Shown in pieces: positions 6,599 through 27,427 of a DNA stretch of 64,000 nt. Both the position numbers and the translations under genes were made by a program. This stretch comes from an uncultured Acidobacteriota bacterium (GTDB taxonomy: Bacteria; Acidobacteriota; Thermoanaerobaculia; UBA5066; Gp7-AA6), in NCBI GenBank assembly GCA_963764715.1, contig CAVXTP010000012.1, forward strand, positions 96,747 through 160,746, given 5' to 3'. The notes beneath the pieces are model-generated. The model saw only the letters and a program-made list of their open reading frames with translations. It was not told the DNA's origin and searched no databases. Numbering within the stretch: the stretch's first letter is position 1; every line of letters starts with the position of its first letter.

Positions 6599-6602
6599 AA
6601 CC

Positions 6603-6681: not shown

Positions 6682-6691
6682 TCAGTCGCCA

Positions 6692-9376: not shown

Positions 9377-9387
9377 TCCCGCCTCCT

Positions 9388-9717: not shown

Positions 9718-9732
9718 CGTGCTCTCCCCTGT

Positions 9733-9777
9733 CGCTTCGACAACAGCGAGCCTAGCAGCCGTGTTGTCGAAGCGCAA
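9733..9777 (-). promoter_or_regulatory. padR promoter overlapped by a 13-bp inverted repeat (candidate operator)
   Basis: CGCTTCGACAACA-N16-TGTTGTCGAAGCG; minus strand TTGCGC-N17-TAGGCT. Confidence 0.6.
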
Positions 9778-9848
9778 GGGAAGACGCCGGCACGCGACGC
9801 CAAGAAGTTCCCGAGGATGCGGCCTCGCCGCGAGGCTATGCTGGCGGC

Positions 9849-11156: not shown

Positions 11157-11168
11157 CCCGGGCCCGGC

Positions 11169-11594
11169 TCAGCTGCGCCTTCTCGTTCCCCGCAGCTCCG
11201 GCTTGATGTCGACGACCGGCGTGCCGTCGATCGCCTCGATCGGACCGACGCGCAGGCGGTTGCCTTCGATCGCCCGCACCGTCACGGGATGGAGGCCCAG
11301 TGGATTCGGGCGGTCCGGGGAACGCGTGGCGAAGACGCCCGTGAGCGGATTCCGCGGGTCGGACCGCGGCCGGACGCGGAGGACATCCCGGCGGGCCCGA
11401 TGAAGCCACGTGACGACGAGGATCCGGTCGCCCGGGGCGAGGCCCCGGAGGCCTCTCGCGGCCCACGGCCGGATCTCGAGCCAGGCGTCGGGCGCTCCCT
11501 CCGAGCCCTGCATCGGCGCCTCGCCGCGCTTCTTCAGGACGGACCGGATCGTGCCGACCGTCCGCAGCTGCGCCGCCGGAGCTGCCCGGCTCAT
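11169..11594 (-). CDS. tsaA: TsaA/TrmO-like SAM-binding tRNA methyltransferase domain protein
   Basis: GVFATRSPDRPNPLG and DGTPVVDIKP motifs. Confidence 0.82.
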   Translation of the reverse strand: MSRAAPAAQLRTVGTIRSVLKKRGEAPMQGSEGAPDAWLEIRPWAARGLRGLAPGDRILVVTWLHRARRDVLRVRPRSDPRNPLTGVFATRSPDRPNPLGLHPVTVRAIEGNRLRVGPIEAIDGTPVVDIKPELRGTRRRS

Positions 11595-11758
11595 CGGCCA
11601 AGCATCACCCTCGCCGTGCTTCCTCATGGGCATGACAGGCGAAACCTAGCAAATCGGACGAAGAGATCGTCGCCGTCGGGAGGCTCGCGGCCGAGCGGCT
11701 GCGCTCCCAGGCCCGTTCGGGAAGGTTCCCGGCTCCAGACCTGTTATTCCCGGCCGAG

Positions 11759-12418
11759 ATGAAACGCCAGACAACCTTCTTCCTTGCCCTGTTCTCCTGC
11801 GCGCTCGCGGCGCAGGCCGGCCAGGACTCGAAGCCGGCCCGGCCGTCCGACTGGGCGACCCCCGTCAGTGGCACCAGCGTCGGAAACCTGTATCTAATCG
11901 AGGACGGCTTCTACCGTGGCGCCCAGCCGAGCGCCGCCGGCTTCCAGGAGCTCGCCACTCTGGGGGTGCGGAGCGTTCTCGACCTGGCCGGAGGCGCCGG
12001 AGACGGGCAGGTTGTCCGCGACGGTTCCGTGAAGCTGTTTCACGTTCCCATGAGCGCCTGGGGCCTCCACGACGATCTCGTTCTCCAGGCGCTGCGGATC
12101 ATGATCGACCCGCAGAACCGGCCCCTGATGATCCACTGCCAGCACGGCGCCGATCGGACCGGAGCGCTGGTGGCGTTGTACCGCGTCGTCGCCCAGGGCT
12201 GGAGCAAGGAACAGGCGGTCCGCGAGATGAGCCGGGGCGGCTACCACCACAACGCCCTCTGGAGGAACCTCGACCGGTACGTCCTCAAGGCGGACGTCGC
12301 GGCGTTGCGCCGGGAGCTCGGGCTGCCGGCCGCCCCCGTGCCGGCGTCCGTCGAGCCCAGGACGGACCTTCCCGTGCTCGCCGTGATCCCGGGCGTCGCG
12401 ACCGGGTCCCCGCAGTAG
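11759..12418 (+). CDS. Secreted dual-specificity/tyrosine phosphatase-family protein
   Basis: YRGAQP and IHCQHGADRTG (CX5R) motifs; signal peptide. Confidence 0.88.
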   Translation: MKRQTTFFLALFSCALAAQAGQDSKPARPSDWATPVSGTSVGNLYLIEDGFYRGAQPSAAGFQELATLGVRSVLDLAGGAGDGQVVRDGSVKLFHVPMSAWGLHDDLVLQALRIMIDPQNRPLMIHCQHGADRTGALVALYRVVAQGWSKEQAVREMSRGGYHHNALWRNLDRYVLKADVAALRRELGLPAAPVPASVEPRTDLPVLAVIPGVATGSPQ

Positions 12419-12546
12419 TCCGGGTCCCGGGTTCGTCAGGGAACCCGCCGCCTCAGGCTCCGCCCCGTAAGCGACTCATGAAGTCCCGGACGACTTGCGC
12501 GATTTGATCCACCGCCGTGTCGACGGACTCGGGGAGCGTCGTCTCG

Positions 12547-13236
12547 TCACAACGGCAGTTCACCTCCGGACTGCTCCGCCGCCATGTACGCCGCGTACCA
12601 GTCGGCCCAGTTTGCGTCGCGCTGCCCGGTGCGCTTCTCGTGCTCGCCGTGCGCGGCCTCCGCGCGCCGCATCGCGCTCGCGAGATCCGGCACGGAAGCG
12701 AACGTCGTGGCGTTCGAGTCGATCCGGCCCGGGAGACGCGTAGTGATCTCCTGCAGCAGCCAGCCGTTGCCGTCGGGATCGCTGAACGAGGCGAACGAGC
12801 GATAGCTGCGGTGCTCGGGGTCCGGACCGCTGACCCGGACCCGCCCGAACAGGTAGGCCTCGTCCGAGCCCGTGAACCTGTCGCCCGCACCGTGGAACAC
12901 CTCGCTGACGTCGACGCCGCGGTGGACCAGCTCGGCCCGGGCGGCCTCGATGTCGGAGACAATCAGGTACAGACCCTGGGCGGAGCCGGGTGCCGCCCCG
13001 GTCACGTTCTTTCCGAAGATGACCGAGCACCCGGAGCCCGGCGGCGTGAACTGCATCGCGCGGTAGTCGTCGCCGGAGGCGAACTCGGCGTCGAGCCGCC
13101 ACCCGAGCCTCCCGTAGAACTCTTTCGCGCGGTCGACATTGGAGACGGGGATGACGACGATCTCGAGCTTGGTGTCGATCTTTGCTGCACGCGGGTCGGT
13201 GGTCGCTTCATCACGGACGGTTGCGGTGGTACTCAC
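12547..13236 (-). CDS. VOC/glyoxalase-family protein
   Basis: KLEIVVIPVSNVDRAKEFY and FSDPDGNGWLLQE. Confidence 0.9.
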   Translation of the reverse strand: MSTTATVRDEATTDPRAAKIDTKLEIVVIPVSNVDRAKEFYGRLGWRLDAEFASGDDYRAMQFTPPGSGCSVIFGKNVTGAAPGSAQGLYLIVSDIEAARAELVHRGVDVSEVFHGAGDRFTGSDEAYLFGRVRVSGPDPEHRSYRSFASFSDPDGNGWLLQEITTRLPGRIDSNATTFASVPDLASAMRRAEAAHGEHEKRTGQRDANWADWYAAYMAAEQSGGELPL

Positions 13237-13431
13237 GCCTGCCTCCTGGTTTTGTTGCCCGGTCCAAGGGCATTTCCAGACCGTTGTTTATCACGCGAAC
13301 AGGGTCGAGATCCCTCTGCAGGTCGCGTCGGAACCCGACGCCGGGTCAAATGGCGAGCATATGAAGACGAAGCTGCAGGATGGGGTCCAGGACGCTCGTG
13401 CACGGGAGGGCCCCGAGGGCGGAAATCTCGT

Positions 13432-13466
13432 TGGAACGAGAAGCAGGATCGAACCCGCGACGTCCA
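13432..13466 (-). mobile_element. Degenerate tRNA-Gly 3' half (att-like scar)
   Basis: Minus strand GTCGCGGGTTCGATCCTGCTTCTCGTTCCA versus tRNA end GTCGCGGGTTCGATCCCCGTTTCCCGCTCCA, same orientation. Confidence 0.7.
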
Positions 13467-13486
13467 GCCCAGGGCGACCCGGCCTC

Positions 13487-13517
13487 AAAAGAAAAGCGCC
13501 CGATTTCTCAGGCGCTT
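13487..13517 (-). terminator. Rho-independent terminator
   Basis: AAGCGCC/GGCGCTT stem followed on the minus strand by a T-rich tract, downstream of the 13575-15050 gene. Confidence 0.6.
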
Positions 13518-13574
13518 GCGACGGTTGCCGGCGCTGCCGGAGCCGGCCTTCCGCGACGATTTACCCGGCGCTGC

Positions 13575-15050
13575 TCAGTGAACGTTGACCGTGATCGGCG
13601 AGGAAGGAATTCCGTTGGTGACGACGACCAGATCTCCCAACCCGGTCTCCATTCCGATCGGCACGTCGTACTGGGTCGAGGCGATCCCCGTGTAGGCGAC
13701 CGCCATCGTGCTGTGATCGTGCGTGCGCGCGTAGAACACGTGTCCCGTCGCGCGGTTCGTGATCCGCACCAGCGGATAGTTGGTTGCGGCCTGAGCGTCG
13801 TCCCCGTAGGCGGCGCCCTGGGAGAAGCCATTGAGCTTTCGTCCGCTGAGCGGATACGTGGATCCCCGGTTGACGTCCGTCACGCCCGGGCCGCCGACGA
13901 TCGTCGGCGCCCACGCGGGATTGGGCGCGCCGCTGGAAGCGTAGACCCAGGCGTTACCGCTGATGTCCGTCCAGAGGATCTCGCCCGTGGGAAGGACGAG
14001 CATGTTTCCCAGGTACGAGGGCTCGCCGTGGGCGGGCGGCGGAGCGGGGACCTTGAGCAGGGTCAGTCCGTTCCATTCGAAGAACTTGGAGCCCGGCCTG
14101 AAAATGCGCGGGCTGACCTGCACCAGGACGTTGCCGTTCGGAAGCAGAGCCGCCGGACCGTCGGCGCTGTCCCGGTTGGACGGGAAGTCCGGGCCCGGCG
14201 TCCACGTGCCGGTGTGGGTATCGAAGATCGACGTGTGGCCGGAACCGCTCGGCGCACCGTTTGCGCCCGTCGCGAATACCGTTCCGTCCGGCCGCAACAC
14301 CGCGGGCCCGAGCTCGTACGATGCATGGTTGGCGTCGGGAAACGAGTCCCAGAGCTGGACGATCGTGCTGCCCGCGCTGGTCCAGGCTCCCGTCGCGGGA
14401 TCGTAGACCTCCGAGTTCGTTCCGTCGGCGTCGTACGAGAAGACGTAGGCATCGACGGTCAGCACCTTGCCGCTCGGAAGCAGAGTCCACCCCTCTTCGT
14501 CGTTGACGGTGAGCTTCCCCGCTCCGGTCGCCGTCCAGCTCAAACTCGTCGCGTCGAGCAGGGCCGTCTCCGTGGTGCAGCAGTTGGCCAGCATGTACGT
14601 ACCATTGGCGAGGACGGTCCCCTGGGCATCGCCGATGGTCGACCAGCCCGCGGGAGGATCGACCGGGGCCCAGGAGTCCGCTAGCGGATCGTAGATCGCC
14701 CCGAGGTTGCTCCAGACCGGGGTGCAAAAGTTGTATTCGCCGCCCTCGACGATCACGCGCCCGTCCGCGAGCACGGCCGAACTGAAATAGAGAGGGCCGT
14801 ATCCCTCGGGCAGGGGCGCGATCTCACTCCAGGTGCCGTTGACGTAACTGCCGCTCGCGTCGGGAGTGAGACGCCACCAATCGCGGGCGCAGCCGTCGTG
14901 CGCGATGACGGTGCCGTCCGTGAGCAGCAGGGGGTTGCTCGCTGCGAATGTTGGCTGGCTGGCCAGCGGCGTCCACGTCTGCGCGCCGGCGAGGCCCGAC
15001 TTCAGCAGAAACACCGATACGACGAGACCGACGATTCGTAGAGTTCGCAT
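13575..15050 (-). CDS. Secreted kelch-like beta-propeller protein with a C-terminal Ig-like domain
   Basis: Signal peptide; repeated (V/L)L.DG.V...G and IYDP..xxWT blades. Confidence 0.75.
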   Translation of the reverse strand: MRTLRIVGLVVSVFLLKSGLAGAQTWTPLASQPTFAASNPLLLTDGTVIAHDGCARDWWRLTPDASGSYVNGTWSEIAPLPEGYGPLYFSSAVLADGRVIVEGGEYNFCTPVWSNLGAIYDPLADSWAPVDPPAGWSTIGDAQGTVLANGTYMLANCCTTETALLDATSLSWTATGAGKLTVNDEEGWTLLPSGKVLTVDAYVFSYDADGTNSEVYDPATGAWTSAGSTIVQLWDSFPDANHASYELGPAVLRPDGTVFATGANGAPSGSGHTSIFDTHTGTWTPGPDFPSNRDSADGPAALLPNGNVLVQVSPRIFRPGSKFFEWNGLTLLKVPAPPPAHGEPSYLGNMLVLPTGEILWTDISGNAWVYASSGAPNPAWAPTIVGGPGVTDVNRGSTYPLSGRKLNGFSQGAAYGDDAQAATNYPLVRITNRATGHVFYARTHDHSTMAVAYTGIASTQYDVPIGMETGLGDLVVVTNGIPSSPITVNVH

Positions 15051-15276
15051 CTGACTCCTCCATGGATTTGCGCCATCTGCTCAGTGATCGGCCAGCCGGA
15101 ATGTACTCCGCAAAGCCATCGGGTCAAACTCGAATCGTAGGCTCCGGCAAGATGCTCTCCGAGCGGCCAAGAAAAGTCCAAGACGCGAACAAGGAGATTC
15201 CGAGCTGAGGACGGCGATCGAGATCGCGCATCCGGACTTCCGCCCGGAGCGGATCACCGCGGCGAAGGAACCGGCG

Positions 15277-15561
15277 CTATATCTTCTGAGATCTCTCCGC
15301 GGGCGGAGGGAAGCTCAGCTCGACGAGCGCCTGAACCCTCTCGAAGACCGCGGCGCACGCGTCGCACTGGCGGTGAACGCTCACGCAGGGGACGCCGTCG
15401 GCCTGCGCCTCGGCGCAGCAGGGCTCCTGGCCGATCTGGATGAGGCGGTCCACGACCTCGAGCAGGCGGTGCCGGAGCGGGGAGTCTGCGATGGCGCGGA
15501 GTCCGTAGATCAGGCCTCGCTCCGGGGCGGTGAGCGGGACGGGGAGCAGGGCTTCGGTCAT
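15277..15561 (-). CDS. Small Cys-rich hypothetical protein, last gene of the oxidoreductase operon
   Basis: ATGA overlap with the upstream stop; 94 aa with EPCCAEAQADGVPC..CDAC. Confidence 0.7.
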   Translation of the reverse strand: MTEALLPVPLTAPERGLIYGLRAIADSPLRHRLLEVVDRLIQIGQEPCCAEAQADGVPCVSVHRQCDACAAVFERVQALVELSFPPPAERSQKI

Positions 15562-17000
15562 GGCAAAACTCCTTCGGGGCAGGGGACCGCGCTCGGGACG
15601 GCCTTCGCGCCCCGAGCGAAGGCCTCCTCGTTGACCGGAATGAGCGCGGCTTTCGCCGCCAGCGCCTGGCGGAGCACCGCCAGGAAGGTCTCCGCGGGGA
15701 AGAGGCGTGTCGCGGCGCACAGAGCGCCGAGCGCGACGATGTTCTTGACCACCGGCAGGCCCAGCTCCACGGCGATGGCGGTGAAGGGGACGCCGATCGC
15801 CGTCACGCCGTTGCCGAAGTCCGGCGGATCGGCCATGACCGAGCGGTCGTAGAGAATGGTGCCTCCCGGCGCGACGCTCGCTCCGAATTTCGCGAGGCTG
15901 GGCGCGTTGAATGCGATCAGGATGTGCGGATTCGGGGACGCCGGAGAGAGGACTTCCCCGTCCGCCACGTGGATGTCGGCATAGGAGGTTCCGCCGCGCG
16001 ATTCCGGTCCGTAGCTCGGGATGTGCGTGGCGTCGAAGCCCTCGTTGATGGCGGCACGCGCGATGAGCATCGCCGCGGTCTGGGCTCCGTCCCCGCCCGC
16101 GCCGGCCAGCTTCAAGGAGATGTCGTTGGCATGGAGATGGCGCGGGAAGCCTCGACCGAAGCGCTCGGTCGGGGTCGTCGTGCCTCCCAGGGCGGCGACG
16201 AGCTTCTCGGGCTCGAAGACGGGGGGAGACAGATGGAACCAGGGATCCGAAGCCGCATCCTTCTTCACCCCGAGTGGAAAAACCGGGAGCATCTGTTCCT
16301 TGACCCACTTCTCGGCCTCTTCGGGGGTCTTCTTCAGATGGGTCGGGCACTCGGCCAGGACCTCCACGAAGGCGAAGCCCTTCCCTTCGACCTGCAGCTG
16401 CACCGCCTTCTTGATGGCTTTCTTGGCCCGCACGCGCTGCTTCGCGTCGAACAACGCCACGCGCTCCACGTAGACCGGCCCGTCGAGCTGGGCGATCAGC
16501 TCGGCCATCTTCATCGGACTCCCCATCAGGCGCGTGCGGCCCTCCGGGCTCGTCGTGGTCTTCTGCCCCATCAGCGTTGTGGGAGCCAGCTGGCCGCCGG
16601 TCATTCCGTAGATCGCGTTGTTGACGAAAACCACCGAGAGCGGGATGCCCAGTTGAGCCGTGGACACGATCTCCGCGAGGCCGATGGAAGCGAGATCGCC
16701 GTCGCCCTGGTAGCTGATCACGATGGAGTTGGGGTTGGCGACCTTGTGCCCCAGAGCCACCGCCGGGGCGCGTCCGTGAGCGGCCTGCGTGTTTCCGACG
16801 TCGAAGTAGTAGTAGAGGAAGACCGCGCAGCCGACGGGTGAGACGGCAATCGTGCGGTCCTGGATACCGAGCTCCTCGATCGCCTCGGCGAGGTACTTGT
16901 GCGCCAGCCCGTGCCCGCAGCCCGGGCAGTAGTGGGTCGCGTGGCCCTTGAGCCCTTCCCCGTGGGAGTGTCGCTCGAACCTCTCGTAGAAGACGCTCAT
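15558..17000 (-). CDS. 2-oxoacid:ferredoxin oxidoreductase, fused beta-gamma subunit
   Basis: YCPGCGH, SPVGC, GDGD..NN TPP motif, then gamma domain GAGGDGAQ and SYGPESRGG. Confidence 0.92.
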   Translation of the reverse strand: MSVFYERFERHSHGEGLKGHATHYCPGCGHGLAHKYLAEAIEELGIQDRTIAVSPVGCAVFLYYYFDVGNTQAAHGRAPAVALGHKVANPNSIVISYQGDGDLASIGLAEIVSTAQLGIPLSVVFVNNAIYGMTGGQLAPTTLMGQKTTTSPEGRTRLMGSPMKMAELIAQLDGPVYVERVALFDAKQRVRAKKAIKKAVQLQVEGKGFAFVEVLAECPTHLKKTPEEAEKWVKEQMLPVFPLGVKKDAASDPWFHLSPPVFEPEKLVAALGGTTTPTERFGRGFPRHLHANDISLKLAGAGGDGAQTAAMLIARAAINEGFDATHIPSYGPESRGGTSYADIHVADGEVLSPASPNPHILIAFNAPSLAKFGASVAPGGTILYDRSVMADPPDFGNGVTAIGVPFTAIAVELGLPVVKNIVALGALCAATRLFPAETFLAVLRQALAAKAALIPVNEEAFARGAKAVPSAVPCPEGVLP

Positions 17001-18403
17001 GCGGCGGCCTTTCGCCCGTTGAGGACATGCGCGACGATCTCGCTCTGCTGCGGCAGGATTCCGCCGAATCGCCGGACGGACTCGATCGGCGGATGGTCGC
17101 GGAGGCCGGCGTGAGAGAGGGCGAGGCGCATCTCGTCCTCGAGCTGCCCGGGGGACGCCTCCACGACGACGATCCGCTCGGCGTTGTGCAGCAGCGGCTC
17201 CAGCTTCGCGATCGGGAAGGGCCAGAGAGTGATGGGCCGGAAGAGGCCCGCCTTGACGCCTTCCTGGCGCAGCGCCCGGACGGCTCCCTTGGCCATGCGG
17301 GCCGGGGTGTTGCAGGCCACGATCAGCACTTCGGCGTCCTCGAACTCGAAGAGGTCGGCGCGCTGTTCGGTTTCCATCCGCCGGTACTTCTCGTTCAGGA
17401 GCCGGTTGCGATTCTCCAGATCCGCCTCGCAAAGGTAGATCGAGTTGATGAGATTGGAGCGATGAGACGCGTCGCCGAAGACCGCCCACTCGGGGATCCC
17501 CGGCTTCACCATGTGGCGCGGGAGAACGACTTTTCCGGTCATCTGACCGAGATACCCGTCGCTCAACACGACGACCGGATTCCGGTACCGAAAGGAAAGC
17601 TCGAAGGCCAGCAGCGTCAAGTCGAGCATCTCCTGCGGCGTGGAGGGCGCCAGCACGATGCCGTGCGAGTTGCCATGGCCCAGGCCCCGGCAGGCGAGCT
17701 TTATGTCCGACTGCTCGGGGGCGATGTTTCCCAGCCCCGGACCGCCTCGCATGACGTTCACGAAAACGGCGGGGACCTCGCTGCCCACCATGTAGGAAAT
17801 CCCTTCGAGCATGAGGCTGAATCCGGGCGACGAAGTGAACGTCATGCAGGGCAGTCCCGCGCCGCCGCACCCGTACATCATGTTCACCGTCGCGACCTCG
17901 CTCACGGCCTGCAGGAAGACGCCGTCGAGCTCCGGCAGGAGCTTCGCCATCAGCTCGGCTCCCTCGGTCGAGGGCGTGATCGGGTAACCGAAGACATGCC
18001 GGCAGCCGGCCAGGAGCGCGCCGATGGCCGAGGCGTAGTTGCCTTTCACGACGAGCGGCTCGAGCGGCGGTAGCAAAAGGAGCTGGTCGGGGATCGGGAC
18101 GGGCCTCACCGCGGTGGAGCCCCGGGAGCCGAAGAGTTTCTCGGGATCCTGTAACTTGAACTCCGTGGACTCGGCGGCCGAGGGCATCTCCCGGAGTCCG
18201 TAAGGCTCGGGGCAGGCGTCGAGGCACAGCCCGCAGGCCGTGCAGTCCTCGAGGTGGAGCACGACCGGCACGAGACCGGTTTCGGGGTTGATTCCCTCCG
18301 CGAGCTCGATGCAGTGCTTCGCGCACGCCTCGATGCATCTCCCGCAGCCCTTGCAGAACTGCGGCAGGAGGAAGGGCTTCTGCTTCTCTCTGCGGTTGGA
18401 CAT
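16997..18403 (-). CDS. 2-oxoacid:ferredoxin oxidoreductase, fused ferredoxin(delta)-alpha subunit
   Basis: CKGCGRCIEAC and CTACGLCLDACP, then GYPITPS, TSSPGFSLM, RGGPGLG. Confidence 0.92.
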   Translation of the reverse strand: MSNRREKQKPFLLPQFCKGCGRCIEACAKHCIELAEGINPETGLVPVVLHLEDCTACGLCLDACPEPYGLREMPSAAESTEFKLQDPEKLFGSRGSTAVRPVPIPDQLLLLPPLEPLVVKGNYASAIGALLAGCRHVFGYPITPSTEGAELMAKLLPELDGVFLQAVSEVATVNMMYGCGGAGLPCMTFTSSPGFSLMLEGISYMVGSEVPAVFVNVMRGGPGLGNIAPEQSDIKLACRGLGHGNSHGIVLAPSTPQEMLDLTLLAFELSFRYRNPVVVLSDGYLGQMTGKVVLPRHMVKPGIPEWAVFGDASHRSNLINSIYLCEADLENRNRLLNEKYRRMETEQRADLFEFEDAEVLIVACNTPARMAKGAVRALRQEGVKAGLFRPITLWPFPIAKLEPLLHNAERIVVVEASPGQLEDEMRLALSHAGLRDHPPIESVRRFGGILPQQSEIVAHVLNGRKAAA

Positions 18404-18770
18404 TACAACTCCGCTCGACAACGAGGGGCAACGCCCCTCCTTGGGCAATGTAGCGACTCTCCCGAACGCGGCAATCGTGCAAATGCATCAGACCAGAGCG
18501 CACCGGACTCGGTTGGGAGAGGGAGTGGATCCGGAGCTCAGTCAGGCTCCATGCGTAGAGGAACCAAACGCCTGCCGTTGATTTTCGCAGCAGGCTCTCA
18601 AGCCGCTGACTGTTAATGACTTACGTGAACAAATCTACAAAACGACCTGTCCCGGTTGTTGAGGTTCTCAGCGATCTTCCCTTTCGAGCACTGGGCACGG
18701 CCCGCCCTCCATCGCCATAAGGGGCGATGAATCAGTGGTTTAAACGCATCACGGCGCTCAACACCTCGTG

Positions 18771-18785
18771 TGGCACCGTCGTTGC
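18771..18785 (+). promoter_or_regulatory. Sigma54 promoter of the GcvH-like/NrfCD operon
   Basis: Consensus TGGCAC-CGTCG-TTGC 25 bp before the ATG; IHF-like AATCAGTGGTTTA at about 18730; a sigma54 activator is in the operon. Confidence 0.85.
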
Positions 18786-18810
18786 GATTACCAGGGATCG
18801 AGCAAACACG

Positions 18811-19608
18811 ATGAACACCCAACAGGAGAGAGACGCAAGCCCCGGCCTTCGAGGATTCGAAGCGTCCTCGCTGAAGTGCTGCTGGATGATCGCCGGGATC
18901 GTCGACTACAAGCTCTGCGACCGGGACTACGAGTGCGACGACTGCGGCTTCGACCGGGCGATGCGAAACCCGGGACGCCTCGCCGCCGCGGCCGGACTCG
19001 CTCGGTGCCCCTCGGCGGCCGCCGCCACCGAGTCACTTCTCTTCCACCCCCGCCACGTCTGGGCCCGGTTCGAAACGGGAGGCCGCGTTCGGACGGGCCT
19101 CGACGATTTCGGACGGCGCCTGGCCGGGCGCATCTACTGCGTTGCGCTTCCCGAGCCGGGGACGCGAATCGCCGCGGGCGAGCCCGCCTGGACCTTCGTC
19201 CATTGCGACGGAGAGGTCTCGGTGGCCGCGCCGGTCTCGGGGATCGTGGCCGAAACGAACGAGAGGCTTCGCCACCAGCCGTCGCTGGTGAACGAGGATC
19301 CCTACGGCGCGGGCTGGACGGTCGTCCTGACTCCCACCGACCTCGGCGCCGACCTGCGGGATCTGTGTTTCGGCGCCGAGACCGCGCCCTGGATCGCCGA
19401 GGAGTCTGAAAAGCTGAGTCGTGAGCTGACGAGTGCGGGCGAGTCGCTCCCGACTCTCATGGACGGTGGATGTCTCGTCGACGACCTCCACCAGGCCATC
19501 CCTGCCGAAGCCCGTTCCCGAATCCTGGACCTTTTCCTGTCCGCTAACAAGAGCCGTCCGTCCGATCCTCCGACCACGGGTTCGGCCGGCGACGCAGAAG
19601 GGAGATGA
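18811..19608 (+). CDS. GcvH-fold protein with a Cys-rich N-terminal domain and no lipoyl lysine
   Basis: CCWMIAG..YKLCDRDYECDDC, FHPRHVW, RTGLDDF, APVSG, PSLVNEDPYGAGW. Confidence 0.85.
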   Translation: MNTQQERDASPGLRGFEASSLKCCWMIAGIVDYKLCDRDYECDDCGFDRAMRNPGRLAAAAGLARCPSAAAATESLLFHPRHVWARFETGGRVRTGLDDFGRRLAGRIYCVALPEPGTRIAAGEPAWTFVHCDGEVSVAAPVSGIVAETNERLRHQPSLVNEDPYGAGWTVVLTPTDLGADLRDLCFGAETAPWIAEESEKLSRELTSAGESLPTLMDGGCLVDDLHQAIPAEARSRILDLFLSANKSRPSDPPTTGSAGDAEGR

Positions 19609-20282
19609 TCGTCATGGTCGCCATTCTCGTCGTTCTCTTCATCCTTCTCATGCTGGCGATCGATTCGCTGGTTCATCGCAACGAAGCGGCGCCCCTGGTC
19701 CAGCCGGTCCGACGGCAGATCGCGCTACCCGCCGGTCTGTTCCTCGATTCCGGCCACACCTGGACCGCCCTGGAGCCGTCCGGCCGGATCCGTGTGGGGC
19801 TCGACGACCTCGTGCGCGGCGCGGTCGGCCGCATCGACAAGCTGGAGCTGCCGGAGCCGGGAACCGAGGTGAAGCGCGGCCAGCCGCTCTTCGCGCTCGT
19901 CCAGGGAGGCCGCCGTGCGGCTCTCCTCTCCCCCGTCGACGGCGTGGTGCGCTCCGTCAACCCGCTTCTCGCCGAGACGGCGGGCCCCGTGGCGGCGGAC
20001 CCCTACTACAGAGGATGGGTCTGCGCGCTTTCGCCGAAGAACCTGGGCGCCTCCCTGCGCCGCCTGAAGGTGGCGGAAGAGGCCGTCGAGTGGCTGCGCG
20101 CCGAGCGCGGCCGCTTCGAGAAGTTCGTCGCCGCCCAGGCGTGGCGCGCTCCGGTGCCCGGAATGGCGATGGCGGACGGCGGGAAGCCTGCCGACGGCGT
20201 GCTCGGACACCTCGACGACGAAGCCTGGGCGACCTTCGGCCGGGACTTCCTCGTGCCGGAGGATCCGCCGGTCGCGGAGTGA
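19605..20282 (+). CDS. Membrane-anchored GcvH-fold protein with no lipoyl lysine
   Basis: N-terminal hydrophobic helix, GHTW, RVGLDD, SPVDG, DPYYRGW. Confidence 0.85.
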   Translation: MIVMVAILVVLFILLMLAIDSLVHRNEAAPLVQPVRRQIALPAGLFLDSGHTWTALEPSGRIRVGLDDLVRGAVGRIDKLELPEPGTEVKRGQPLFALVQGGRRAALLSPVDGVVRSVNPLLAETAGPVAADPYYRGWVCALSPKNLGASLRRLKVAEEAVEWLRAERGRFEKFVAAQAWRAPVPGMAMADGGKPADGVLGHLDDEAWATFGRDFLVPEDPPVAE

Positions 20283-20312
20283 TGGTGACGGGTTGGAGGT
20301 GAGAGAAGAGCC

Positions 20313-21101
20313 ATGATCACGAACCCAGAGAGAAAGGCCCTCCTTCTCGACACCACGCGCTGCATCGGCTGCGGAGCCTGTTCCCAAGCCTGCAAGGAGC
20401 GGAACAGGCTCCCCCGCACTTCGGAGGACGTTCTGACGGACAAGCTGTCCGACAGGACGTTCACCGTCGTCAATCGTCAAGGGTCGCGCTTCGTGCGGCG
20501 GTTGTGCATGCATTGCGAGGTCCCGAGCTGCGTTTCGGCCTGCCCGGTCGGCGCGTTCCAGAAGACCGCCGCCGGTCCGGTCGTGTACGACGAGAACCGG
20601 TGCATGGGCTGTCGCTACTGCATGCTGGCCTGCCCGTTCAACGTGCCGAAGTACGAGTGGGGCAAGACCCTGCCGCGGGTCCGCAAGTGCGACATGTGCG
20701 CGGAGCGTCTGGCCCAGGGGCTGGCCACCGCGTGCGCCACGGCCTGCCCGACGGGGGCCACGAAGTTCGGCACCCGCGCCGCGCTCCTCGCCGAGGCGCG
20801 CGCCCGCATCGCGGCCGAGCCGAACCGCTACTACGACTACGTGTACGGGGTGGAGGAGGTGGGGGGCACGTCGGTGCTCATCATCTCCGATGTCCGGCCG
20901 GACCAGCTCGGGCTGCGGACCGACCTGGTCAACGAGCCCCCTGCGATGCTGACCTGGCGGGTGCTGAACAAGATTCCCAACGTCGTGGCCATGGCCGGCC
21001 TGGTCCTCGGCGGGGTTTACTGGATCACCAAGCGGAGCGACGAGGTCGCCCGCGCCGAGGTGCAGGGCACGCAGGGGCCCGACGCCGGTGACGCGCCGTG
21101 A
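20313..21101 (+). CDS. HybA/NrfC/FdnH-like 4x[4Fe-4S] electron-transfer subunit with a C-terminal TM helix
   Basis: CIGCGACSQAC, CMHC..PSCVSACP, CMGCRYCMLACP, KCDMC..ACATACP; no Tat signal. Confidence 0.92.
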   Translation: MITNPERKALLLDTTRCIGCGACSQACKERNRLPRTSEDVLTDKLSDRTFTVVNRQGSRFVRRLCMHCEVPSCVSACPVGAFQKTAAGPVVYDENRCMGCRYCMLACPFNVPKYEWGKTLPRVRKCDMCAERLAQGLATACATACPTGATKFGTRAALLAEARARIAAEPNRYYDYVYGVEEVGGTSVLIISDVRPDQLGLRTDLVNEPPAMLTWRVLNKIPNVVAMAGLVLGGVYWITKRSDEVARAEVQGTQGPDAGDAP

Positions 21102-21114
21102 GCGGAGGTGCTCG

Positions 21115-22716
21115 ATGAGAAGGCTCGCGCTTCCACGTCTCACGTTCTGGCGGTCCGTCCTGGTCGTTCTTCTCGTCGCCGGGTTCTACGGCGCGTTCGT
21201 CCGTTTCTTCCGCGGGCTCGGCGCGTCGACGAACCTCTCCGATGCCTTCCCCTGGGGTCTCTGGGTCGGCTTCGACATCCTCTGCGGCGTCGCGCTGGCC
21301 GCCGGCGGCTTCACCGTCAGCGCCATCGTCTACATCTTCCGTCTCGAGCGCTTCCGCCCGATCGTCCGACCCGCGATCCTGACCGCGTTCCTCGGCTACA
21401 TGCTGGTCATCGGCGCCCTCCTCTTCGACCTGGGGCGGCCGAATCGCGTGTGGCACCCCCTGATCATGTGGAACCCGCACTCGGTCATGTTCGAGGTCGG
21501 CTGGTGCGTGACCCTGTATTCGATCGTGCTCGCGCTCGAGTTCAGCCCGATGGTCTTCGAGCGGTTCCGCATGAAGCGCGCGTTGAAGGTCGTTCACTTC
21601 GTCATGCTGCCGCTGGTCGTGATGGGCGTGCTCCTGTCGACCCTGCACCAGAGCTCGCTCGGATCCTTCTATCTGATCGTTCCCTCCAAGCTCTACCCGC
21701 TCTGGTACACGCCCTGGCTCCCGGTCTTCTTCTTCCTGACCGCGCTGATGCTGGGCTGCGCGATGACCATCGTCGAGTCCTTCATCAGCGCCAGGGCGTT
21801 CAAGAAGGAGATCGAGATGGGTCTCCTCGCCGACCTCGGCAAGGTGACCCTGGTGCTGGTCGGCGTCAACCTCCTGGCCAAATACCAGGACCTCTCGGCC
21901 CGTGGGGTTCTGCGGCTGGCCATCCAGCCGAGCTACGAGGGGCGGCTCTTCCTGGCCGAGGTCCTCATGGGGTTGATCGCCCCCGCCCTGCTGCTCGCGG
22001 TTCCGGCGATCCGCAAGAGCCCGCGCGGCCTCTTCTCCGCGGCGCTCTTAGTCGTCCTCGGGGTCATCATGAACCGCCTGAACGTCTCCATCACCGGCAT
22101 GGAACGCTCGTCCGGAGTCTCCTACGTGCCGAGCTGGACCGAGGTATCGGTCACGCTGATGGTCGTGGGGACCGGCTTCGCGCTCTTCACCCTGGCGGCC
22201 AGGTACCTTCCGGTTTTCCAGCACGACACGAAGGCGCCGCAACCGGAGACCGACTGGGCTGACTCGAGGCCTCTCCGCGGGTTCCGGTTCGCCCTGACCG
22301 CCGCGGCGGCGAGCCTGGCCGGTCTCCTCTTTGTCAGCGCCATCGGCTTGACCTGGGACGGCGTGATGCGGCGGGAGCCCCCTCCCCCCCGGCCCGTCGC
22401 TCAGAACCCCTCCGAGCAGCAGAAAGCCTGGGCGCGAAGCAGTTTCCGGATGCCACCGGACGTGACCTTCCCACAAGCGCCCGACAGCCCGGCGCCCGTC
22501 ACCTTCCGGCATGCCTCTCACGTGGACGCCACCGCCCCGGACTGCCTCGGCTGCCATCGCGGGGATTTCTCGTTCCTGAAGGCCGCATCGCCGCGAAAGC
22601 CGGCCGCGTCCGGCGCCATGCATCAGATGTGCGGCCAGTGTCACGACGGCACGTCCGCGTTCTCCGTCGAAGCGGACTGCGAGAACTGCCACGGAGGGAC
22701 CGCTGCCAAGGAGTGA
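21115..22716 (+). CDS. NrfD/HybB-like integral membrane subunit fused to a c7-type triheme cytochrome
   Basis: TNLSD..PWGLW, DLGRP, LSTLHQSSLG, ~10 TM helices; C-terminal FRHASH, CLGCH, CGQCH, CENCH. Confidence 0.9.
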   Translation: MRRLALPRLTFWRSVLVVLLVAGFYGAFVRFFRGLGASTNLSDAFPWGLWVGFDILCGVALAAGGFTVSAIVYIFRLERFRPIVRPAILTAFLGYMLVIGALLFDLGRPNRVWHPLIMWNPHSVMFEVGWCVTLYSIVLALEFSPMVFERFRMKRALKVVHFVMLPLVVMGVLLSTLHQSSLGSFYLIVPSKLYPLWYTPWLPVFFFLTALMLGCAMTIVESFISARAFKKEIEMGLLADLGKVTLVLVGVNLLAKYQDLSARGVLRLAIQPSYEGRLFLAEVLMGLIAPALLLAVPAIRKSPRGLFSAALLVVLGVIMNRLNVSITGMERSSGVSYVPSWTEVSVTLMVVGTGFALFTLAARYLPVFQHDTKAPQPETDWADSRPLRGFRFALTAAAASLAGLLFVSAIGLTWDGVMRREPPPPRPVAQNPSEQQKAWARSSFRMPPDVTFPQAPDSPAPVTFRHASHVDATAPDCLGCHRGDFSFLKAASPRKPAASGAMHQMCGQCHDGTSAFSVEADCENCHGGTAAKE

Positions 22717-22870
22717 ACCGGATGCGCGCCGTGCCTCGCCGGGCGGGGACCGGTCCCCGGCCGGGAAGGTCTCGTCCGACTCGACCGCCACGGTCGATTC
22801 GGGAGCGCTCGACACGGCCGCCTCCTCCCGGGTACGGCTCTTCCACCCCCGGAGTCTCAGCGTCAAGCTG

Positions 22871-24484
22871 GTGCTCTACCTGGTGGCCGGCCTGGGGCTG
22901 GTCTTCGGGCTCATTGGCTGGCAGCACACCCGCCTCCATCGCCGGGACCTCGAGGAGCGGACGTTCGCCGCCGCCGACCGGATCAGCGAGACGATCAAGC
23001 GCAGCGCCCGCTACAGCATGCTGAACAACCACCGCGACGAGGTCTACCACATCATCACGACGATCGGCGCCCAGCCCGGCATCGGGCGCATCCGGATCTA
23101 CAACGAGCAGGGGCGGATCAGCTTCTCGACCGACGAGCACGAGGTGGGCACCTTCGTGGACAAGAGAGTCGAGGCCTGCGTTTCCTGCCATGCCCAGGAG
23201 CAGCCGCTGACGCGCCTGAACCGGCCCGACCGCCTGAGGATCTTCCGCAACGAGAAAGGGGAGCGGCTGGCCGGCTTGATCAACCCGATCGAGAACGAAC
23301 CGAGCTGCTGGAAGGCGGCGTGCCACGCGCATCCCGCCGACCAGCAGGTCCTCGGCGTCCTCGACGTCACGGTTCCCCTGGCCAGCCTCGACGAGACGAT
23401 CGTACGCGGCGCACGGCGCATGGTGGGCAACACGGCCATCGGCATCGGCGTCGTCTCGCTTCTGGCGGGCGTCCTCACATGGCTCGTGGTGCAGAAGCCG
23501 GTGACCCGCCTCGTCCGCGGCACTCGCCGGGTGGCCCAGGGCGACCTCGACGCGAAGATCCCGGTCGATTCGCGCGATGAGCTGGGACTGCTGGCCCGCT
23601 CGTTCAACCTGATGACGGAAGACCTGCGCCACGCCCGCGACGAGCTCAACGGCTGGACGCAGACCCTGGAGAGCCGCGTCGAGGAGAAGACCGCCGAGCT
23701 GAAGAGCGTGCACCAGCAGATGCTGCAGGTCGAGAGGATGACCTCCATCGGAAAGCTGGCGGCGATCGTGGCCCACGAAATCAACAACCCGCTGGCGGGG
23801 ATCCACACCTATGCCCGCCTGTTGATGAAGCAGGCGGACCGCGGCGACCTGAGTCTGGACCAGGCGCGGGAGAACCTCGCGGTCATCGCGTCGGAGTCCG
23901 CCCGCTGCGGCGAGATCGTCAAGGGGCTGCTGCAGTTCGCCAGCCCCAACGCTCAGACCGAGATGACGCCCAATGACATCAATGAGACGGTGCGACAGTC
24001 CCTCCGGCTGGTCGACCACAAGATGGCCTTGATGGCGCTGCGGACGCGGGTCGACCTCGCTCCCGACCTCCCGGCCGTCGCCTGCAACAAGCAACAGGTG
24101 ATCCAGGCGCTCGTCGCCCTGCTGATCAACGCGTGCGAGGCGATGACGCCCAATGAGGGGGAGCTCGAGGTGACGACCCGGGCGGTGACCGGCACCGGCG
24201 GCCGCGCCGGCGTGCAGATCCGCGTGCGCGACAACGGCTCCGGGATGGACGCCGAGACGCGGACCCGCATCTTCGAGCCGTTCTTCACGACGAAGCGCGG
24301 CGAGAAGAGTCTCGGAGTTGGTCTGGCGGTGGTGATGAGCATCCTGACCCGGCACCTGGGCGAGATCGAGGTCGACTCCGCTCCGGGAGCGGGGACGACA
24401 TTCACGCTGCGGTTCTTCGAGCGGCCCGGAGGGGACGCGGGTGTCCCGTTCGAGCCGGCGGCCGCGGCGCCGGAACGGACATAG
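22871..24484 (+). CDS. HAMP sensor histidine kinase with heme-c-like motifs in the periplasmic domain; true start probably upstream
   Basis: CVSCH and CWKAACH between TM helices; AHEINNPL H-box; DNGSGM, FEPFFTTK. Confidence 0.9.
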   Translation: MLYLVAGLGLVFGLIGWQHTRLHRRDLEERTFAAADRISETIKRSARYSMLNNHRDEVYHIITTIGAQPGIGRIRIYNEQGRISFSTDEHEVGTFVDKRVEACVSCHAQEQPLTRLNRPDRLRIFRNEKGERLAGLINPIENEPSCWKAACHAHPADQQVLGVLDVTVPLASLDETIVRGARRMVGNTAIGIGVVSLLAGVLTWLVVQKPVTRLVRGTRRVAQGDLDAKIPVDSRDELGLLARSFNLMTEDLRHARDELNGWTQTLESRVEEKTAELKSVHQQMLQVERMTSIGKLAAIVAHEINNPLAGIHTYARLLMKQADRGDLSLDQARENLAVIASESARCGEIVKGLLQFASPNAQTEMTPNDINETVRQSLRLVDHKMALMALRTRVDLAPDLPAVACNKQQVIQALVALLINACEAMTPNEGELEVTTRAVTGTGGRAGVQIRVRDNGSGMDAETRTRIFEPFFTTKRGEKSLGVGLAVVMSILTRHLGEIEVDSAPGAGTTFTLRFFERPGGDAGVPFEPAAAAPERT

Positions 24485-24493
24485 GAGGAAGCG

Positions 24494-25861
<1,368 letters not shown>

Positions 25862-25880
25862 GCGAATCGAGGTCCCGCGC

Positions 25881-26405
25881 ATGCCGAACATCCAGCTCGT
25901 CGCCGTCGGAAGGGTGGAGCCGGCGATCCTCGACTACCTCGCGCTGGTTCTTCCCGAGAGCGCCGGCGGCCGGGCCACTCTCTCCCGCCAGGCGATCGAC
26001 CCTCGCGAGGCGTTCGATCCGGCCCGCCAGCAGTTCCACTCCACGTGGATCCTGACTCGTCTGGCCGGCCTGGCCAGGAACCACGGCGAGCGAGTCGTCG
26101 GCGTGGCCGACGTCGATCTTTTCATCCCGATCTTCACTTTCGTCTTCGGCGAGGCGCAGCTCGGGGGGGCGGCGGCCCTCTTCTCCGCCACCCGCCTCCG
26201 GCAGGAGTTCTACGGCCTCCCGGCCGACGAGGTCCTCTTCTACGAACGCTGCGAGAAGGAGGCCCTGCACGAGCTGGGACATACGCTCGGGCTCGTCCAC
26301 TGTCCCATCCACTCCTGCGTGATGCACTTCGCCAACTCGATCGAGGAGGTCGACCTGAGGAGCGCCGTCTGGTGCCCGGAGTGCGACGCGAAGCGGTCGC
26401 TCTAA
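25881..26405 (+). CDS. Archaemetzincin-family Zn metalloprotease
   Basis: [12 protein letters not shown]....CVM...CPEC; FVFGEA. Confidence 0.9.
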
Positions 26406-26565
26406 AGGTCTGCCTGGAGGCGGTATCGGGCAAATGAAACTTGCCGTGGAAAACCTCAGGCCGGTTTTGGGAATCCGCCTTGAACTCGGATTTGAACTCG
26501 CGGCGCTGGTCGGCATGAAGCCCGGCAGGACGCCGGGCCTAACTCTCTGGGACTTCAGGAATTGT

Positions 26566-26640
26566 TGGAGCGGGAAACGGGGATCGAACCCGCGACTTCC
26601 ACCTTGGCAAGGTGGCGCTCTACCGCTGAGCTATTCCCGC
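26566..26640 (-). tRNA. tRNA-Gly(GCC)
   Basis: GCGGGAATAGCTCAGCGGTAGAGCGCCACCTTGCCAAGGTGGAAGTCGCGGGTTCGATCCCCGTTTCCCGCTCCA cloverleaf with encoded CCA. Confidence 0.97.
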
Positions 26641-26707
26641 TCGGGGAGGCGAAGGATAGCCGACCCCCGGGCCGTGGGTCAAGAAAGCGGAAAGGGCGGG
26701 CCGGAGG

Positions 26708-27427
26708 CTATTCGAGGTCTCCGGGAGCGGCGTGAAGGTCGCCCGCGGTTCCGCCGCAGTGGGCGCAGACCCGAAGGCTCGCGCCCCCGAATTTCTTCTC
26801 CTCGGCGCACTCCTCGCAGAGCGGCCGGCCGGTATCGGCGCACTGAAAGTGGGCGACGCGGTCCGTGTGCGCGGGGCAGACCGGCGGGGGCGTGATGCGG
26901 GCGGTTCTGCGGAGCTCGAACAGGGACTTGAGCTCCGGGATCGAGTCCGCGCGGGCGGCGACGTCGGTTCCGACGGCCACGAGGTCGCCCTCGTTGATCG
27001 CGGCCGTCCGGATCAGCGTGCGCATCGCGCGGCGGTCGAACTCGTCGTGCTCGAAGCCTTTCTTCTGGACGCGATAGGTCTTCCCCGACTCCGTGCCCGT
27101 CCCGTCCATCGGGTCGGCCGGCGGCGTCCGGGGCCTCGCGGGAGGCGCCGGAGCGGAAGCGCTGGCGACGGGCGGCGCGGGCGCGGCGGCCGGCGGACGA
27201 GTCGGGGGCGGAGGGGGCGGGGCCGCGCCGGACCCTCCCCCGTCGGCCTGGAGACGGATGTAGACCCGGGCCTCGTCGCGCGACGGAAAATCCATCGCCT
27301 TCGCGCACTTCGGGCAACTGAACCGGGCCTGGACGGGAGGGATCTTGGCGAGGCTGATCGAGAAGCTGCCCGAGCAGCTGGGACACGAGAAGGTGTAGCG
27401 AAGATCCTCGTCGTTGACGGCGCTCAT
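26708..27427 (-). CDS. Zinc-ribbon / B-box-like hypothetical protein
   Basis: CPSC..CPKC ribbon, Pro/Ala linker, CPAH..C..LCEEC..CAHC. Confidence 0.75.
   Translation of the reverse strand: MSAVNDEDLRYTFSCPSCSGSFSISLAKIPPVQARFSCPKCAKAMDFPSRDEARVYIRLQADGGGSGAAPPPPPPTRPPAAAPAPPVASASAPAPPARPRTPPADPMDGTGTESGKTYRVQKKGFEHDEFDRRAMRTLIRTAAINEGDLVAVGTDVAARADSIPELKSLFELRRTARITPPPVCPAHTDRVAHFQCADTGRPLCEECAEEKKFGGASLRVCAHCGGTAGDLHAAPGDLE

Follow-up and report, generated by a model that had tools for sequence, protein, structure and literature searches.

A widespread NrfC/NrfD-cytochrome cassette with a putative haem sensor kinase, GcvH-fold proteins that lack the lipoyl lysine, and an archaemetzincin

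We identified a seven-gene cassette in a 64,000-nucleotide stretch of DNA from an uncultured Acidobacteriota bacterium (assembly GCA_963764715.1, contig CAVXTP010000012.1, forward-strand positions 96,747 to 160,746; this whole stretch is called the window below, and coordinates refer to it unless a locus is named). The cassette encodes two GcvH-fold proteins (GcvH1 and GcvH2), a four-cluster iron-sulfur (Fe-S) protein of the NrfC type, an NrfD membrane protein fused to a trihaem cytochrome c7 domain, a sensor histidine kinase, an NtrC-type activator and an archaemetzincin (Table 1). We consider it narrowly probable that these genes make up an inducible oxidoreductase working between quinone and a periplasmic cytochrome, of the same kind as Qrc, Hmc and Cbc4, and run by its own haem sensor. 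An earlier reading of the DNA from its letters alone (the sequence-only reading) had described an NrfC/NrfD-cytochrome operon that lacks a catalytic subunit and comes with a haem sensor and a sigma54 activator of its own, and this description stands: every gene it listed was found again in our scans of open reading frames (ORFs) with Pfam and NCBIfam, and the same set recurs in most of 80 related loci.

The 80 loci were retrieved with an alignment of the NrfD-c7 protein from contigs of collections that hold one genome per species; they are the best 80 of at least 590 matching stretches, a stretch being counted when it matched two signature peptides of the group. Ten proteins of the window were compared against all of them. 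The loci come from about ten phyla (Acidobacteriota, Bacteroidota, Ignavibacteriota, KSB1, Latescibacterota, Calditrichota, Myxococcota, Verrucomicrobiota and others), and 56 of them are well flanked, with at least 3 kb upstream and at least 5.5 kb downstream of NrfD. NrfC adjoins NrfD in all 56 well-flanked loci; the kinase is present in 51 of them, the activator in 50, a GcvH-like gene in 47 and the archaemetzincin in 46. NrfC, kinase, activator and archaemetzincin occur together in 45 of the 56 loci, and all five (these four and a GcvH-like gene) in 36. The c7 fusion is less frequent (19 of 56; 26 of 80 overall). Two loci hold, a few kb downstream of a complete cassette, a paralogous second set in the order activator, GcvH2-type gene, NrfC and NrfD (L052:15885-20165 and L066:15883-20278).

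The same survey bears on the possibility, also raised from the sequence, that the operon is what is left of a hydrogenase or molybdoenzyme operon after deletion of the catalytic subunit. No molybdoenzyme was found by Pfam among 76 neighbouring ORFs (48 flanking ORFs from nine loci, and 28 gap or downstream ORFs from ten more), and the neighbours are unrelated. Only one of the 80 loci (L013) has a hydrogenase inside the cluster: between its kinase and activator (L013:14159-17332) lie genes for a HycI maturation protease, a [NiFe] large subunit and a small subunit that bears a twin-arginine translocation (Tat) signal but is not anchored at its C terminus. Given the conserved gene set, the lack of a molybdoenzyme and the single hydrogenase locus, the operon is therefore not a deletion remnant.

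A second line of evidence that the seven genes form a unit comes from a 15.3-kb metagenome contig (L084). Its positions 5669-13585 match the cassette at 94.4% DNA identity over 7946 alignment columns (blastn; extent in Table 1), and its flanks do not match the DNA around the cassette in the window. The match runs from just outside the start codon of the neighbouring 2-oxoacid oxidoreductase (OFOR) to the last codon of the archaemetzincin, and all seven cassette genes are present at 91-96% protein identity. The flank of L084 matches other contigs of the window's genome at 72-80% identity only; the two cassettes are therefore more alike than the genomes around them, and they lie at different locations. 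A contig of sequencing run X1 also ceases to match at 26404. We conclude that the cassette is self-contained and horizontally mobile. Consistent with this, at E<=1e-100 the NrfD-c7 fusion protein was found in none of 24 congeners and in none of 16 genomes of the same order. The gene adjoining the cassette in L084 belongs to a large repeated family of unknown kind, with dozens of stretches at 66-85% identity on two contigs of the window's genome (G000 contigs C6 and C26) and one further stretch in the window, at about 8982-9111.

The membrane subunit has the features of a quinone-reactive NrfD. It matches PF03916 with 77 bits (cut-off 25.8), has ten helices as counted from the sequence, and aligns over its full length with E. 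coli HybB. The HybB residues D58, D109, S129 and E133, assigned to the quinone site, and R89, Y99, E148 and H184, assigned to the inner proton path (roles according to PMC8076601, in its accessible text), are invariant in all eight aligned sequences. According to the same text, the ten-helix NrfD has both termini in the cytoplasm and its quinone site on the outer side. In the window protein an eleventh helix follows and precedes the c7 domain, which places that domain outside. The c7 domain carries three haem motifs (CLGCH, CGQCH and CENCH), scores 41.8 bits against PF14522 (cut-off 24.8) and 52 bits against the NCBIfam model nanowire_3heme (TIGR04257, cut-off 40), and matches GSU1996-type chains.

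NrfC has 16 invariant cysteines in four cluster motifs (24 sequences), and its closest solved relative is FdnH (1kqf_B, 7e-34), followed by PsrB. By sequence, NrfC is closest to HmcB and HybA, and NrfD to HmcC and HybB, among the NCBIfam equivalogs, with all scores under the cut-offs: 256.8 for HmcB (cut-off 420) and 204.2 for HybA (263), 321.2 for HmcC (550) and 291.5 for HybB (450). The C-terminal anchor helix of NrfC has 3.5 basic residues after it versus 1.65 before it (n=78), and it is followed by a conserved NRR-x-EV; RR likewise follows the anchor of E. coli HybA. In one protein of 819 residues (P0113), NrfC, NrfD and c7 are naturally fused into a single chain in which the NrfC anchor helix is retained together with a Lys-rich linker; the anchor and the NrfD helices add up to twelve helices between the Fe-S and the haem domains. 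P0113 also has an additional, weakly hydrophobic stretch of 20 residues before the first NrfD helix. Five loci of Acidobacteriaceae type encode, directly upstream of NrfC, a signal-bearing monohaem cytochrome c of 107 residues (motif CAACH); they have neither the c7 fusion nor an adjacent GcvH-like gene. Judging from homology, anchor charge and accompanying cytochromes, the Fe-S domain of NrfC most likely faces the periplasm. The sequence-only reading had electrons enter from the cytoplasm, and this part of it is not supported, the Fe-S subunit being built like the periplasm-facing HybA and FdnH.

The sensor histidine kinase has, in its outer domain, the motifs A-C-x-x-C-H and C-x4-C-H-x-H in 65 of 67 sequences. 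Its AlphaFold2 (AF2) model (predicted local distance difference test score, pLDDT, 85) shows a PDC/sCache-type domain between two helices. Foldseek matches of this domain include WalK, KinD, DctB and CitA, with the haem-c sensor GSU0935 at rank 7; the comparison with 3b42 gave a Foldseek E of 1.2e-4, and that with the Pfam family Mcp40H-20_sensor gave 0.0012, which is sub-threshold. We consider it most likely, from these motifs and models, that the periplasmic domain carries two c-type haems. A profile of the sensor domain, searched against 1.84 billion representatives, found 497 clusters (at 50% identity) with the limit set to E<=1e-30 and 1649 when it was relaxed to E<=1e-10, nearly all of the matches being N-terminal in proteins of about 500-560 residues.

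The activator carries the domains of its family (REC, Sigma54_activat and HTH_8) and is predicted to be a sigma54-dependent activator; a GG-N10-GC element lies upstream of its putative target, the cassette operon. The putative -24/-12 promoter site before the first cassette gene (TGGCACCGTCGTTGCG) is one of four sites of its type in the 64-kb window, both strands counted. Among 75 loci, 20 have a -24/-12-like site in the 300 nt that precede the first cluster gene (background, 0.022 per 310 nt), and a differently anchored scan found such sites in 16 loci, eight of them additional. Given the position of the site in the window, GcvH1 likely starts at 18811 rather than at 18727. A terminator scan of 18300-26900 found none above shuffled expectation.

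Both GcvH1 and GcvH2 contain the GcvH barrel, as confirmed by Pfam and by Foldseek, with template-modelling (TM) scores of about 0.8-0.9 to GcvH structures; the AF2 model of GcvH1 has a pLDDT of 78 overall. They differ from the true GcvH of the same genome, which is encoded on another contig and has the lipoyl motif VESVKAVSE. The lipoyl lysine is replaced in all five aligned sequences (by D or G in both window proteins, and by D, R or G in three orthologues), and the scores against PRK01202 (73 bits for GcvH1 and 52 for GcvH2) are under the cut-off of 117. The suggestion, made from the sequence, that the two proteins serve as acyl or electron adaptors for 2-oxoacid oxidation is not supported, given this replacement. 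GcvH1 begins with an invariant motif, C-x-W-M-x-A-G-x-V-x-Y-K-L-C-D-x6-C-x2-C, to which we assign no fold because the AF2 pLDDT is below 50 there. GcvH2 has a membrane helix that starts at Met1 and basic residues after it, so its barrel should be cytoplasmic. Both proteins end in a C-terminal extension with an invariant D-G-G. Relatives of GcvH1 fall into GCV_H clusters labelled hypothetical, commonest in Thermodesulfobacteriota; names of its homologues are automatic "glycine cleavage system H" labels only, and none is from a cultured organism. One candidate fusion of GcvH1 and GcvH2 (P0124) was rejected, since its sequence resembles a frameshifted call. In another locus (L009:7553-9088) a GcvH1-type and a GcvH2-type sequence lie in a single open frame with the type-2 membrane helix mid-way; we left this single case aside, since it may have arisen from misassembly or read-through.

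In five loci (L011, L018, L020, L048 and L064), receiver (REC) domains are fused to GcvH-fold proteins beside the kinase, and in three of the five both GcvH copies are fused; the archaemetzincin is absent from all five. Because both proteins are receiver-fused beside the kinase in some lineages, the GcvH-fold proteins are probably regulated accessory parts. We infer from these few and related loci that they are effectors under the kinase, either by induction or by phosphorylation, and that the protease belongs with induction.

The fusions also lend themselves to another interpretation, in which NrfCD (with or without c7), rather than being a respiratory enzyme, serves as the input device of the kinase by relaying the redox state of the quinone pool to its periplasmic haems, and the real output consists of the REC-GcvH proteins or of the genes that the sigma54 activator controls. 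The REC-GcvH fusions would then be signalling outputs within the cluster; in addition, the kinase is linked to NrfCD in 51 of the 56 well-flanked loci and is the sole haem protein of the cluster in most loci. However, a ten-helix, four-cluster complex with a conserved proton path would be a costly sensor, the sigma54 site lies before the NrfCD operon itself, as is typical of an induced enzyme, and one locus has a hydrogenase within the cluster. We regard this interpretation as unlikely.

The archaemetzincin scores 156.6 bits against NF033823 (archmetzin, cut-off 145). Among 58 orthologues, 44 have the motif HExxHxxGxxH and the other 14 have HExxH-x5-H, and all 58 have the four cysteines. The cassette gene is the sole PF07998 match in the genome of the window. 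In a census of 30 other cassette-carrying genomes, an archaemetzincin is present in 28, in 21 of them as the only match; of 14 control genomes, only those of archaea matched the family. A role for the protease can be proposed if the oxidoreductase is a respiratory valve gated by its sensor: the GcvH-fold pair would be a new kind of cytoplasmic regulatory subunit that gates the proton-coupled NrfD, docking on its inner face at the NRR-x-EV tail or at the mouth of the proton path, and the kinase would control their abundance or, in other lineages, act directly on their receiver domains, abundance being set by sigma54 induction and by the archaemetzincin as a dedicated off-switch protease. This elaboration of the oxidoreductase reading is speculative, and as a whole we think it rather doubtful; if true, it would give the first assigned role to a bacterial archaemetzincin.

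Taken as an inducible oxidoreductase, the cassette would work as follows. The periplasmic PDC-type domain of the kinase, with its two putative haems, would sense a redox or ligand signal in the periplasm; the kinase would phosphorylate the NtrC-type activator, which, to judge from the site and the domains, would switch on the sigma54 promoter before the operon. The induced products would form a minimal module of the HybAB/HmcBC/QrcCD type, made of the ten-helix NrfD and a periplasm-facing four-cluster Fe-S protein anchored by one helix, and electrons would pass between the quinone pool and a periplasmic c-type cytochrome, which here would be the fused trihaem c7. The direction may be either; the nearest relatives are quinone reductases that draw protons from the cytoplasm. 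The GcvH-fold proteins, predicted to be non-lipoylatable, would sit on the cytoplasmic side, one tethered by its helix and one with a four-Cys motif, probably as regulated accessory parts. A complex prediction with NrfD (residues 1-390), NrfC and GcvH2 gave scores of 0.57, 0.00 and 0.00 and was run without controls, and it has no bearing on binding either way.

Several observations weigh against this account. No Tat signal is found on any of about 80 NrfC orthologues, and the cassette encodes no partner with a Tat signal, so by biogenesis alone a four-cluster NrfC should be cytoplasmic. In essentially every one of the 80 ORFs, about 10 residues of NrfC precede the first Cys motif, longer N-termini occur only in over-extended ORFs of high GC, and the 38-residue signal of HybA has no counterpart in the alignment. 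Moreover, the c7 fusion is absent from 54 of the 80 loci, just five of which carry a cytochrome gene beside NrfC; the periplasmic partner would thus usually be encoded outside the cluster. The haems of the kinase, the promoter and any direction of electron flow are sequence-based predictions, and the action of the GcvH-fold proteins and the protease, like any contact of theirs with NrfCD, is a proposal. Finally, all 80 related loci are from metagenome-assembled genomes, with no cultured carrier among them, and loci of the same lineage are not independent, so the counts overstate the support.

The missing Tat signal is the main weakness of an outward-facing NrfC and the main support for two other explanations. 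In one of them, the Tat signal of an enzyme encoded elsewhere carries NrfC across the membrane, and the module is the HybAB-type anchor of that enzyme. FdnH, to which NrfC is closest by sequence among solved proteins, has no signal of its own and a C-terminal anchor, and rides with FdnG. In L013 a hydrogenase, with an anchorless small subunit that bears a Tat signal, a large subunit and a protease, lies inside the cluster, and a high-scoring [NiFe] large subunit is present in 8 of the 30 other carrier genomes (19 have weak unclassified matches and three have none). However, 22 of the 30 are without a high-scoring large subunit (metagenome-assembled genomes may be incomplete), and the only [NiFe] hydrogenase of the window's genome is already equipped with a cytochrome b and with an anchored small subunit that bears a Tat signal. 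In addition, a hydrogenase is in only one of the 80 clusters and no molybdoenzyme is among the 76 ORFs scanned, and the cassette moves as a unit without the gene of any such enzyme. A shared anchor is therefore quite unlikely in our view.

In the other explanation, the signal-less Fe-S protein stays inside with the GcvH-fold proteins and takes electrons from a cytoplasmic donor, which need not be the OFOR. Besides the missing signal, the GcvH-fold proteins are cytoplasmic by the charge rule, and SoeABC is an NrfD complex oriented to the cytoplasm. SoeABC is among the complexes named in the accessible text of the NrfD family review (PMC8076601). Nevertheless, the charges around the NrfC anchor helix, the homology to HybA, which extends through the anchor, and the helix parity of the natural triple fusion P0113 all speak for the opposite orientation, as do the topology of HybB, with its quinone site on the outer side, and the cytochrome fused or adjacent on that side; and NrfD has no cofactor for transmembrane electron transfer. 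We hold a cytoplasm-facing module to be very unlikely.

The gene pair divergent from the cassette encodes the OFOR, whose delta-alpha protein scores 407 bits against the VorB subfamily of NCBIfam (cut-off 399) and which has alpha, beta, gamma and delta domains fused into two proteins (Pfam). The sequence-only reading had placed this enzyme at the head of the pathway, with electrons passing from it through the GcvH-fold proteins as adaptors to NrfCD, and from there to quinone and haem. The divergent adjacency in the window, an OFOR 0.5 kb downstream of the cassette in L057, and the putative island that OFOR and cassette share here, together with the absence of both from congeners, speak for such a pathway. 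Yet L057 is the only one of the 80 loci with an OFOR near the cassette (1 of the 56 well-flanked loci has one), and none matches in the 6 kb of sequence upstream of the 94%-identical cassette of L084, a lack of linkage that the sequence-only reading had itself named as refuting the coupling. Furthermore, the GcvH-fold proteins have no lipoyl lysine, and the Fe-S subunit most likely faces outward. The full pathway is thus highly improbable; the OFOR is a mere neighbour and not a member of the cassette, and the adjacency that gave rise to the idea is an artefact of the island. The gene models drawn from the sequence were right as to the reality of the genes, but the frame of the OFOR beta-gamma protein and the start of GcvH1 needed correction. 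The ORF at 15277-17028, whose last codons form the small Cys-rich ORF of Table 1, has no Pfam match.

The putative island is bounded on one side by a tRNA-Gly(GCC) gene (26566-26640, minus strand), 160 nt past the archaemetzincin, and on the other, 13.1 kb from the tRNA, by a partial repeat of about 38 nt of the tRNA-Gly 3' end (at about 13430-13467). GC is 0.66-0.68 within it versus 0.70-0.745 outside, and homology to three congeners extends no further than the 3' end of tRNA-Gly. At E<=1e-60 the OFOR was found in none of 25 congeners. No integrase was seen at the island ends in the ORF and Pfam scans of neighbours, the sole search made for one. OFOR, a secreted Kelch-repeat protein (13575-15050, minus strand) and the cassette thus likely share an island here; elsewhere only the seven genes travel jointly. 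A dual-specificity or tyrosine phosphatase-like protein (11759-12418, plus strand) is encoded just outside the island.

Table 1. Features of the window and monohaem cytochrome genes of related loci (the latter in coordinates of the named locus).
Feature	Position	Strand	Characteristics
Sigma54 -24/-12 promoter-like site TGGCACCGTCGTTGCG	18771..18786	+	TGGCAC-N5-TTGC; 25 nt upstream of GcvH1 ATG
GcvH1 (GcvH-fold type 1)	18811..19608	+	N-terminal four-Cys motif, GcvH barrel, DGG C-terminal extension, no lipoyl lysine; Pfam GCV_H 5e-20
GcvH2 (GcvH-fold type 2)	19605..20282	+	Transmembrane helix from Met1, then basic residues; GcvH barrel; DGG extension; no lipoyl lysine; Pfam GCV_H 5e-16
NrfC, HybA/HmcB/FdnH-like 4x[4Fe-4S] subunit	20313..21101	+	Pfam Fer4_11; no Tat signal; C-terminal anchor helix, then NRR-x-EV
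NrfD, HybB/HmcC-like, 10 helices + 11th helix + trihaem c7	21115..22716	+	Pfam NrfD + Cytochrome_C7
Sensor histidine kinase	22871..24484	+	Predicted periplasmic PDC/sCache-like domain with CVSCH + CWKAACH; HAMP, HisKA, HATPase (Pfam)
NtrC-type response regulator/activator	24494..25861	+	REC + Sigma54_activat + HTH_8 (Fis HTH); Pfam, NCBIfam
Archaemetzincin	25881..26405	+	Pfam Peptidase_M54; HExxHxxGxxH + Cys4
Seven-gene cassette, extent as discrete unit	18466..26404	+	blastn match to L084
OFOR delta-alpha	16997..18448	-	Fer4 + POR_N + PFOR_II
OFOR beta-gamma	about 15558..17018	-	TPP_enzyme_C + POR; frame of 981-aa ORF (15558-18503)
95-aa Cys-rich ORF	15277..15564	-	No family match; last 95 codons of 15277-17028 ORF
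Putative genomic island	13430..26640		tRNA-Gly(GCC) + partial repeat bracket Kelch protein, OFOR and cassette
Monohaem cytochrome genes	L062:8733-9056, L074:4197-4520, L075:8706-9029, L076:8554-9030, L077:8731-9054		

Sequencing runs gave some further information. Near-identical DNA was present in two DNA runs, labelled as soil and biofilm, where 29 and 30 of 30 bins were covered. In one RNA library, contigs lie over 18880-20469 and 21224-21415 at 90-99% likeness, and one of its contigs crosses the junction of GcvH2 and NrfC. These contigs are no more than a hint of possible expression, since an RNA library may also contain DNA; equally, uncovered stretches do not argue for silent genes. We disregarded very high depth over 24201-25886 and 26449-26700, as it looks like cross-mapping of similar sequences from other organisms. 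Elsewhere in the genome of the window (G000), two matches to the NrfD family, both close to the end of a contig (G000:C1:2491-3459 and G000:C4:5269-6237), have identical scores, possibly one locus assembled twice or a recent duplicate, and two matches to molybdopterin enzymes (G000:C11:66792-68063 and G000:C18:38529-40130) have one in-frame TGA each, maybe for selenocysteine; near the one on C18, at a distance of about 2 kb, is another NrfD gene.

Few building blocks of respiratory chains, whether anaerobic or aerobic, are as widespread as NrfCD modules, and those that lack a catalytic subunit are poorly understood. The present one is unusual in moving as a cassette, in having its own putative haem sensor, in including a GcvH carrier fold stripped of its cofactor site, and in including an archaemetzincin. 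It offers a handle on the exchange between periplasmic cytochromes and the quinone pool beyond the model metal and sulfate reducers, as well as on the export of signal-less Fe-S proteins and on the function of bacterial archaemetzincins. In the full-text literature covered (main texts of papers free of subscription), no paper pairs parts of the cassette, for example NrfD with archaemetzincin or GcvH, and the accessible text of the NrfD family review (PMC8076601) lists no such group. The expectation that the cluster had not been characterised before holds as far as the pairing of its parts is concerned, but an NrfCD module with a small cytochrome and no catalytic subunit has already been described, as Cbc4 of Geobacter.

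Of the kinds described so far, Cbc4 of Geobacter sulfurreducens (CbcS-CbcT-CbcU, GSU0068-0070) is the closest to the cassette. It likewise lacks a catalytic subunit and combines a 4x[4Fe-4S] protein with an integral membrane subunit and a small multihaem cytochrome, and it has been proposed to be a quinone:cytochrome c oxidoreductase, its role being described as still open (10.1101/2025.04.14.648717, a preprint, in its accessible text). Compared by description only, CbcS is a separate tetrahaem cytochrome of the NapC/NirT type, whereas the cassette has a c7 trihaem domain fused to NrfD, and the accessible text mentions no GcvH-fold proteins, haem kinase, sigma54 activator or archaemetzincin for Cbc4. 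Similarly, QrcABCD, HmcABC(DEF) and HybA-HybB of E. coli Hyd-2 share with the cassette a ten-helix NrfD with quinone and proton residues and an anchored four-cluster partner. The cassette differs from them in scoring under the NCBIfam cut-offs, in an Fe-S subunit with no Tat signal, and in encoding neither a hydrogenase nor a QrcB-like subunit nor a large cytochrome. Members of the HybB/HmcC/QrcD branch are regarded as quinone reductases that draw their electrons from the periplasm and their protons from the cytoplasm (PMC6303296, in its accessible text). The hydrogenase-bearing locus L013 is consistent with this quinone-reducing direction, and the direction in the cassette may be either way. 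FdnH, the beta subunit of E. coli formate dehydrogenase-N (1kqf_B), partners with a cytochrome b and a molybdoenzyme, unlike the NrfC of the cassette, which partners with NrfD and no molybdoenzyme.

The regulatory and accessory parts also have known counterparts. In the BccR-CbcBA system of Geobacter, a sigma54-dependent response regulator answers redox conditions by inducing, through a -24/-12 promoter, a quinol oxidoreductase of the inner membrane (10.1101/2021.04.15.440034, a preprint, in its accessible text); CbcB is a dihaem cytochrome b and not NrfCD, and with unrelated proteins the analogy is one of logic only. The haem-c sensors GSU0582 and GSU0935 likewise have a periplasmic PDC/PAS-like domain with a c-type haem motif, but the cassette sensor has two motifs (CxxCH and Cx4CH), is part of a histidine kinase, and falls outside their Pfam family. 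The GcvH-fold proteins share the barrel and the GCV_H family with GcvH of the glycine cleavage system and with lipoate-binding GcvH-like proteins, from which they differ by the loss of the lipoyl lysine, by an extra Cys4 motif or membrane helix, and by the DGG extension. Set beside these systems, what is new here is a widespread, apparently sensor-controlled NrfCD-cytochrome variant with cofactor-less GcvH-fold partners, an archaemetzincin, and a signal-less Fe-S subunit that most likely faces outward.

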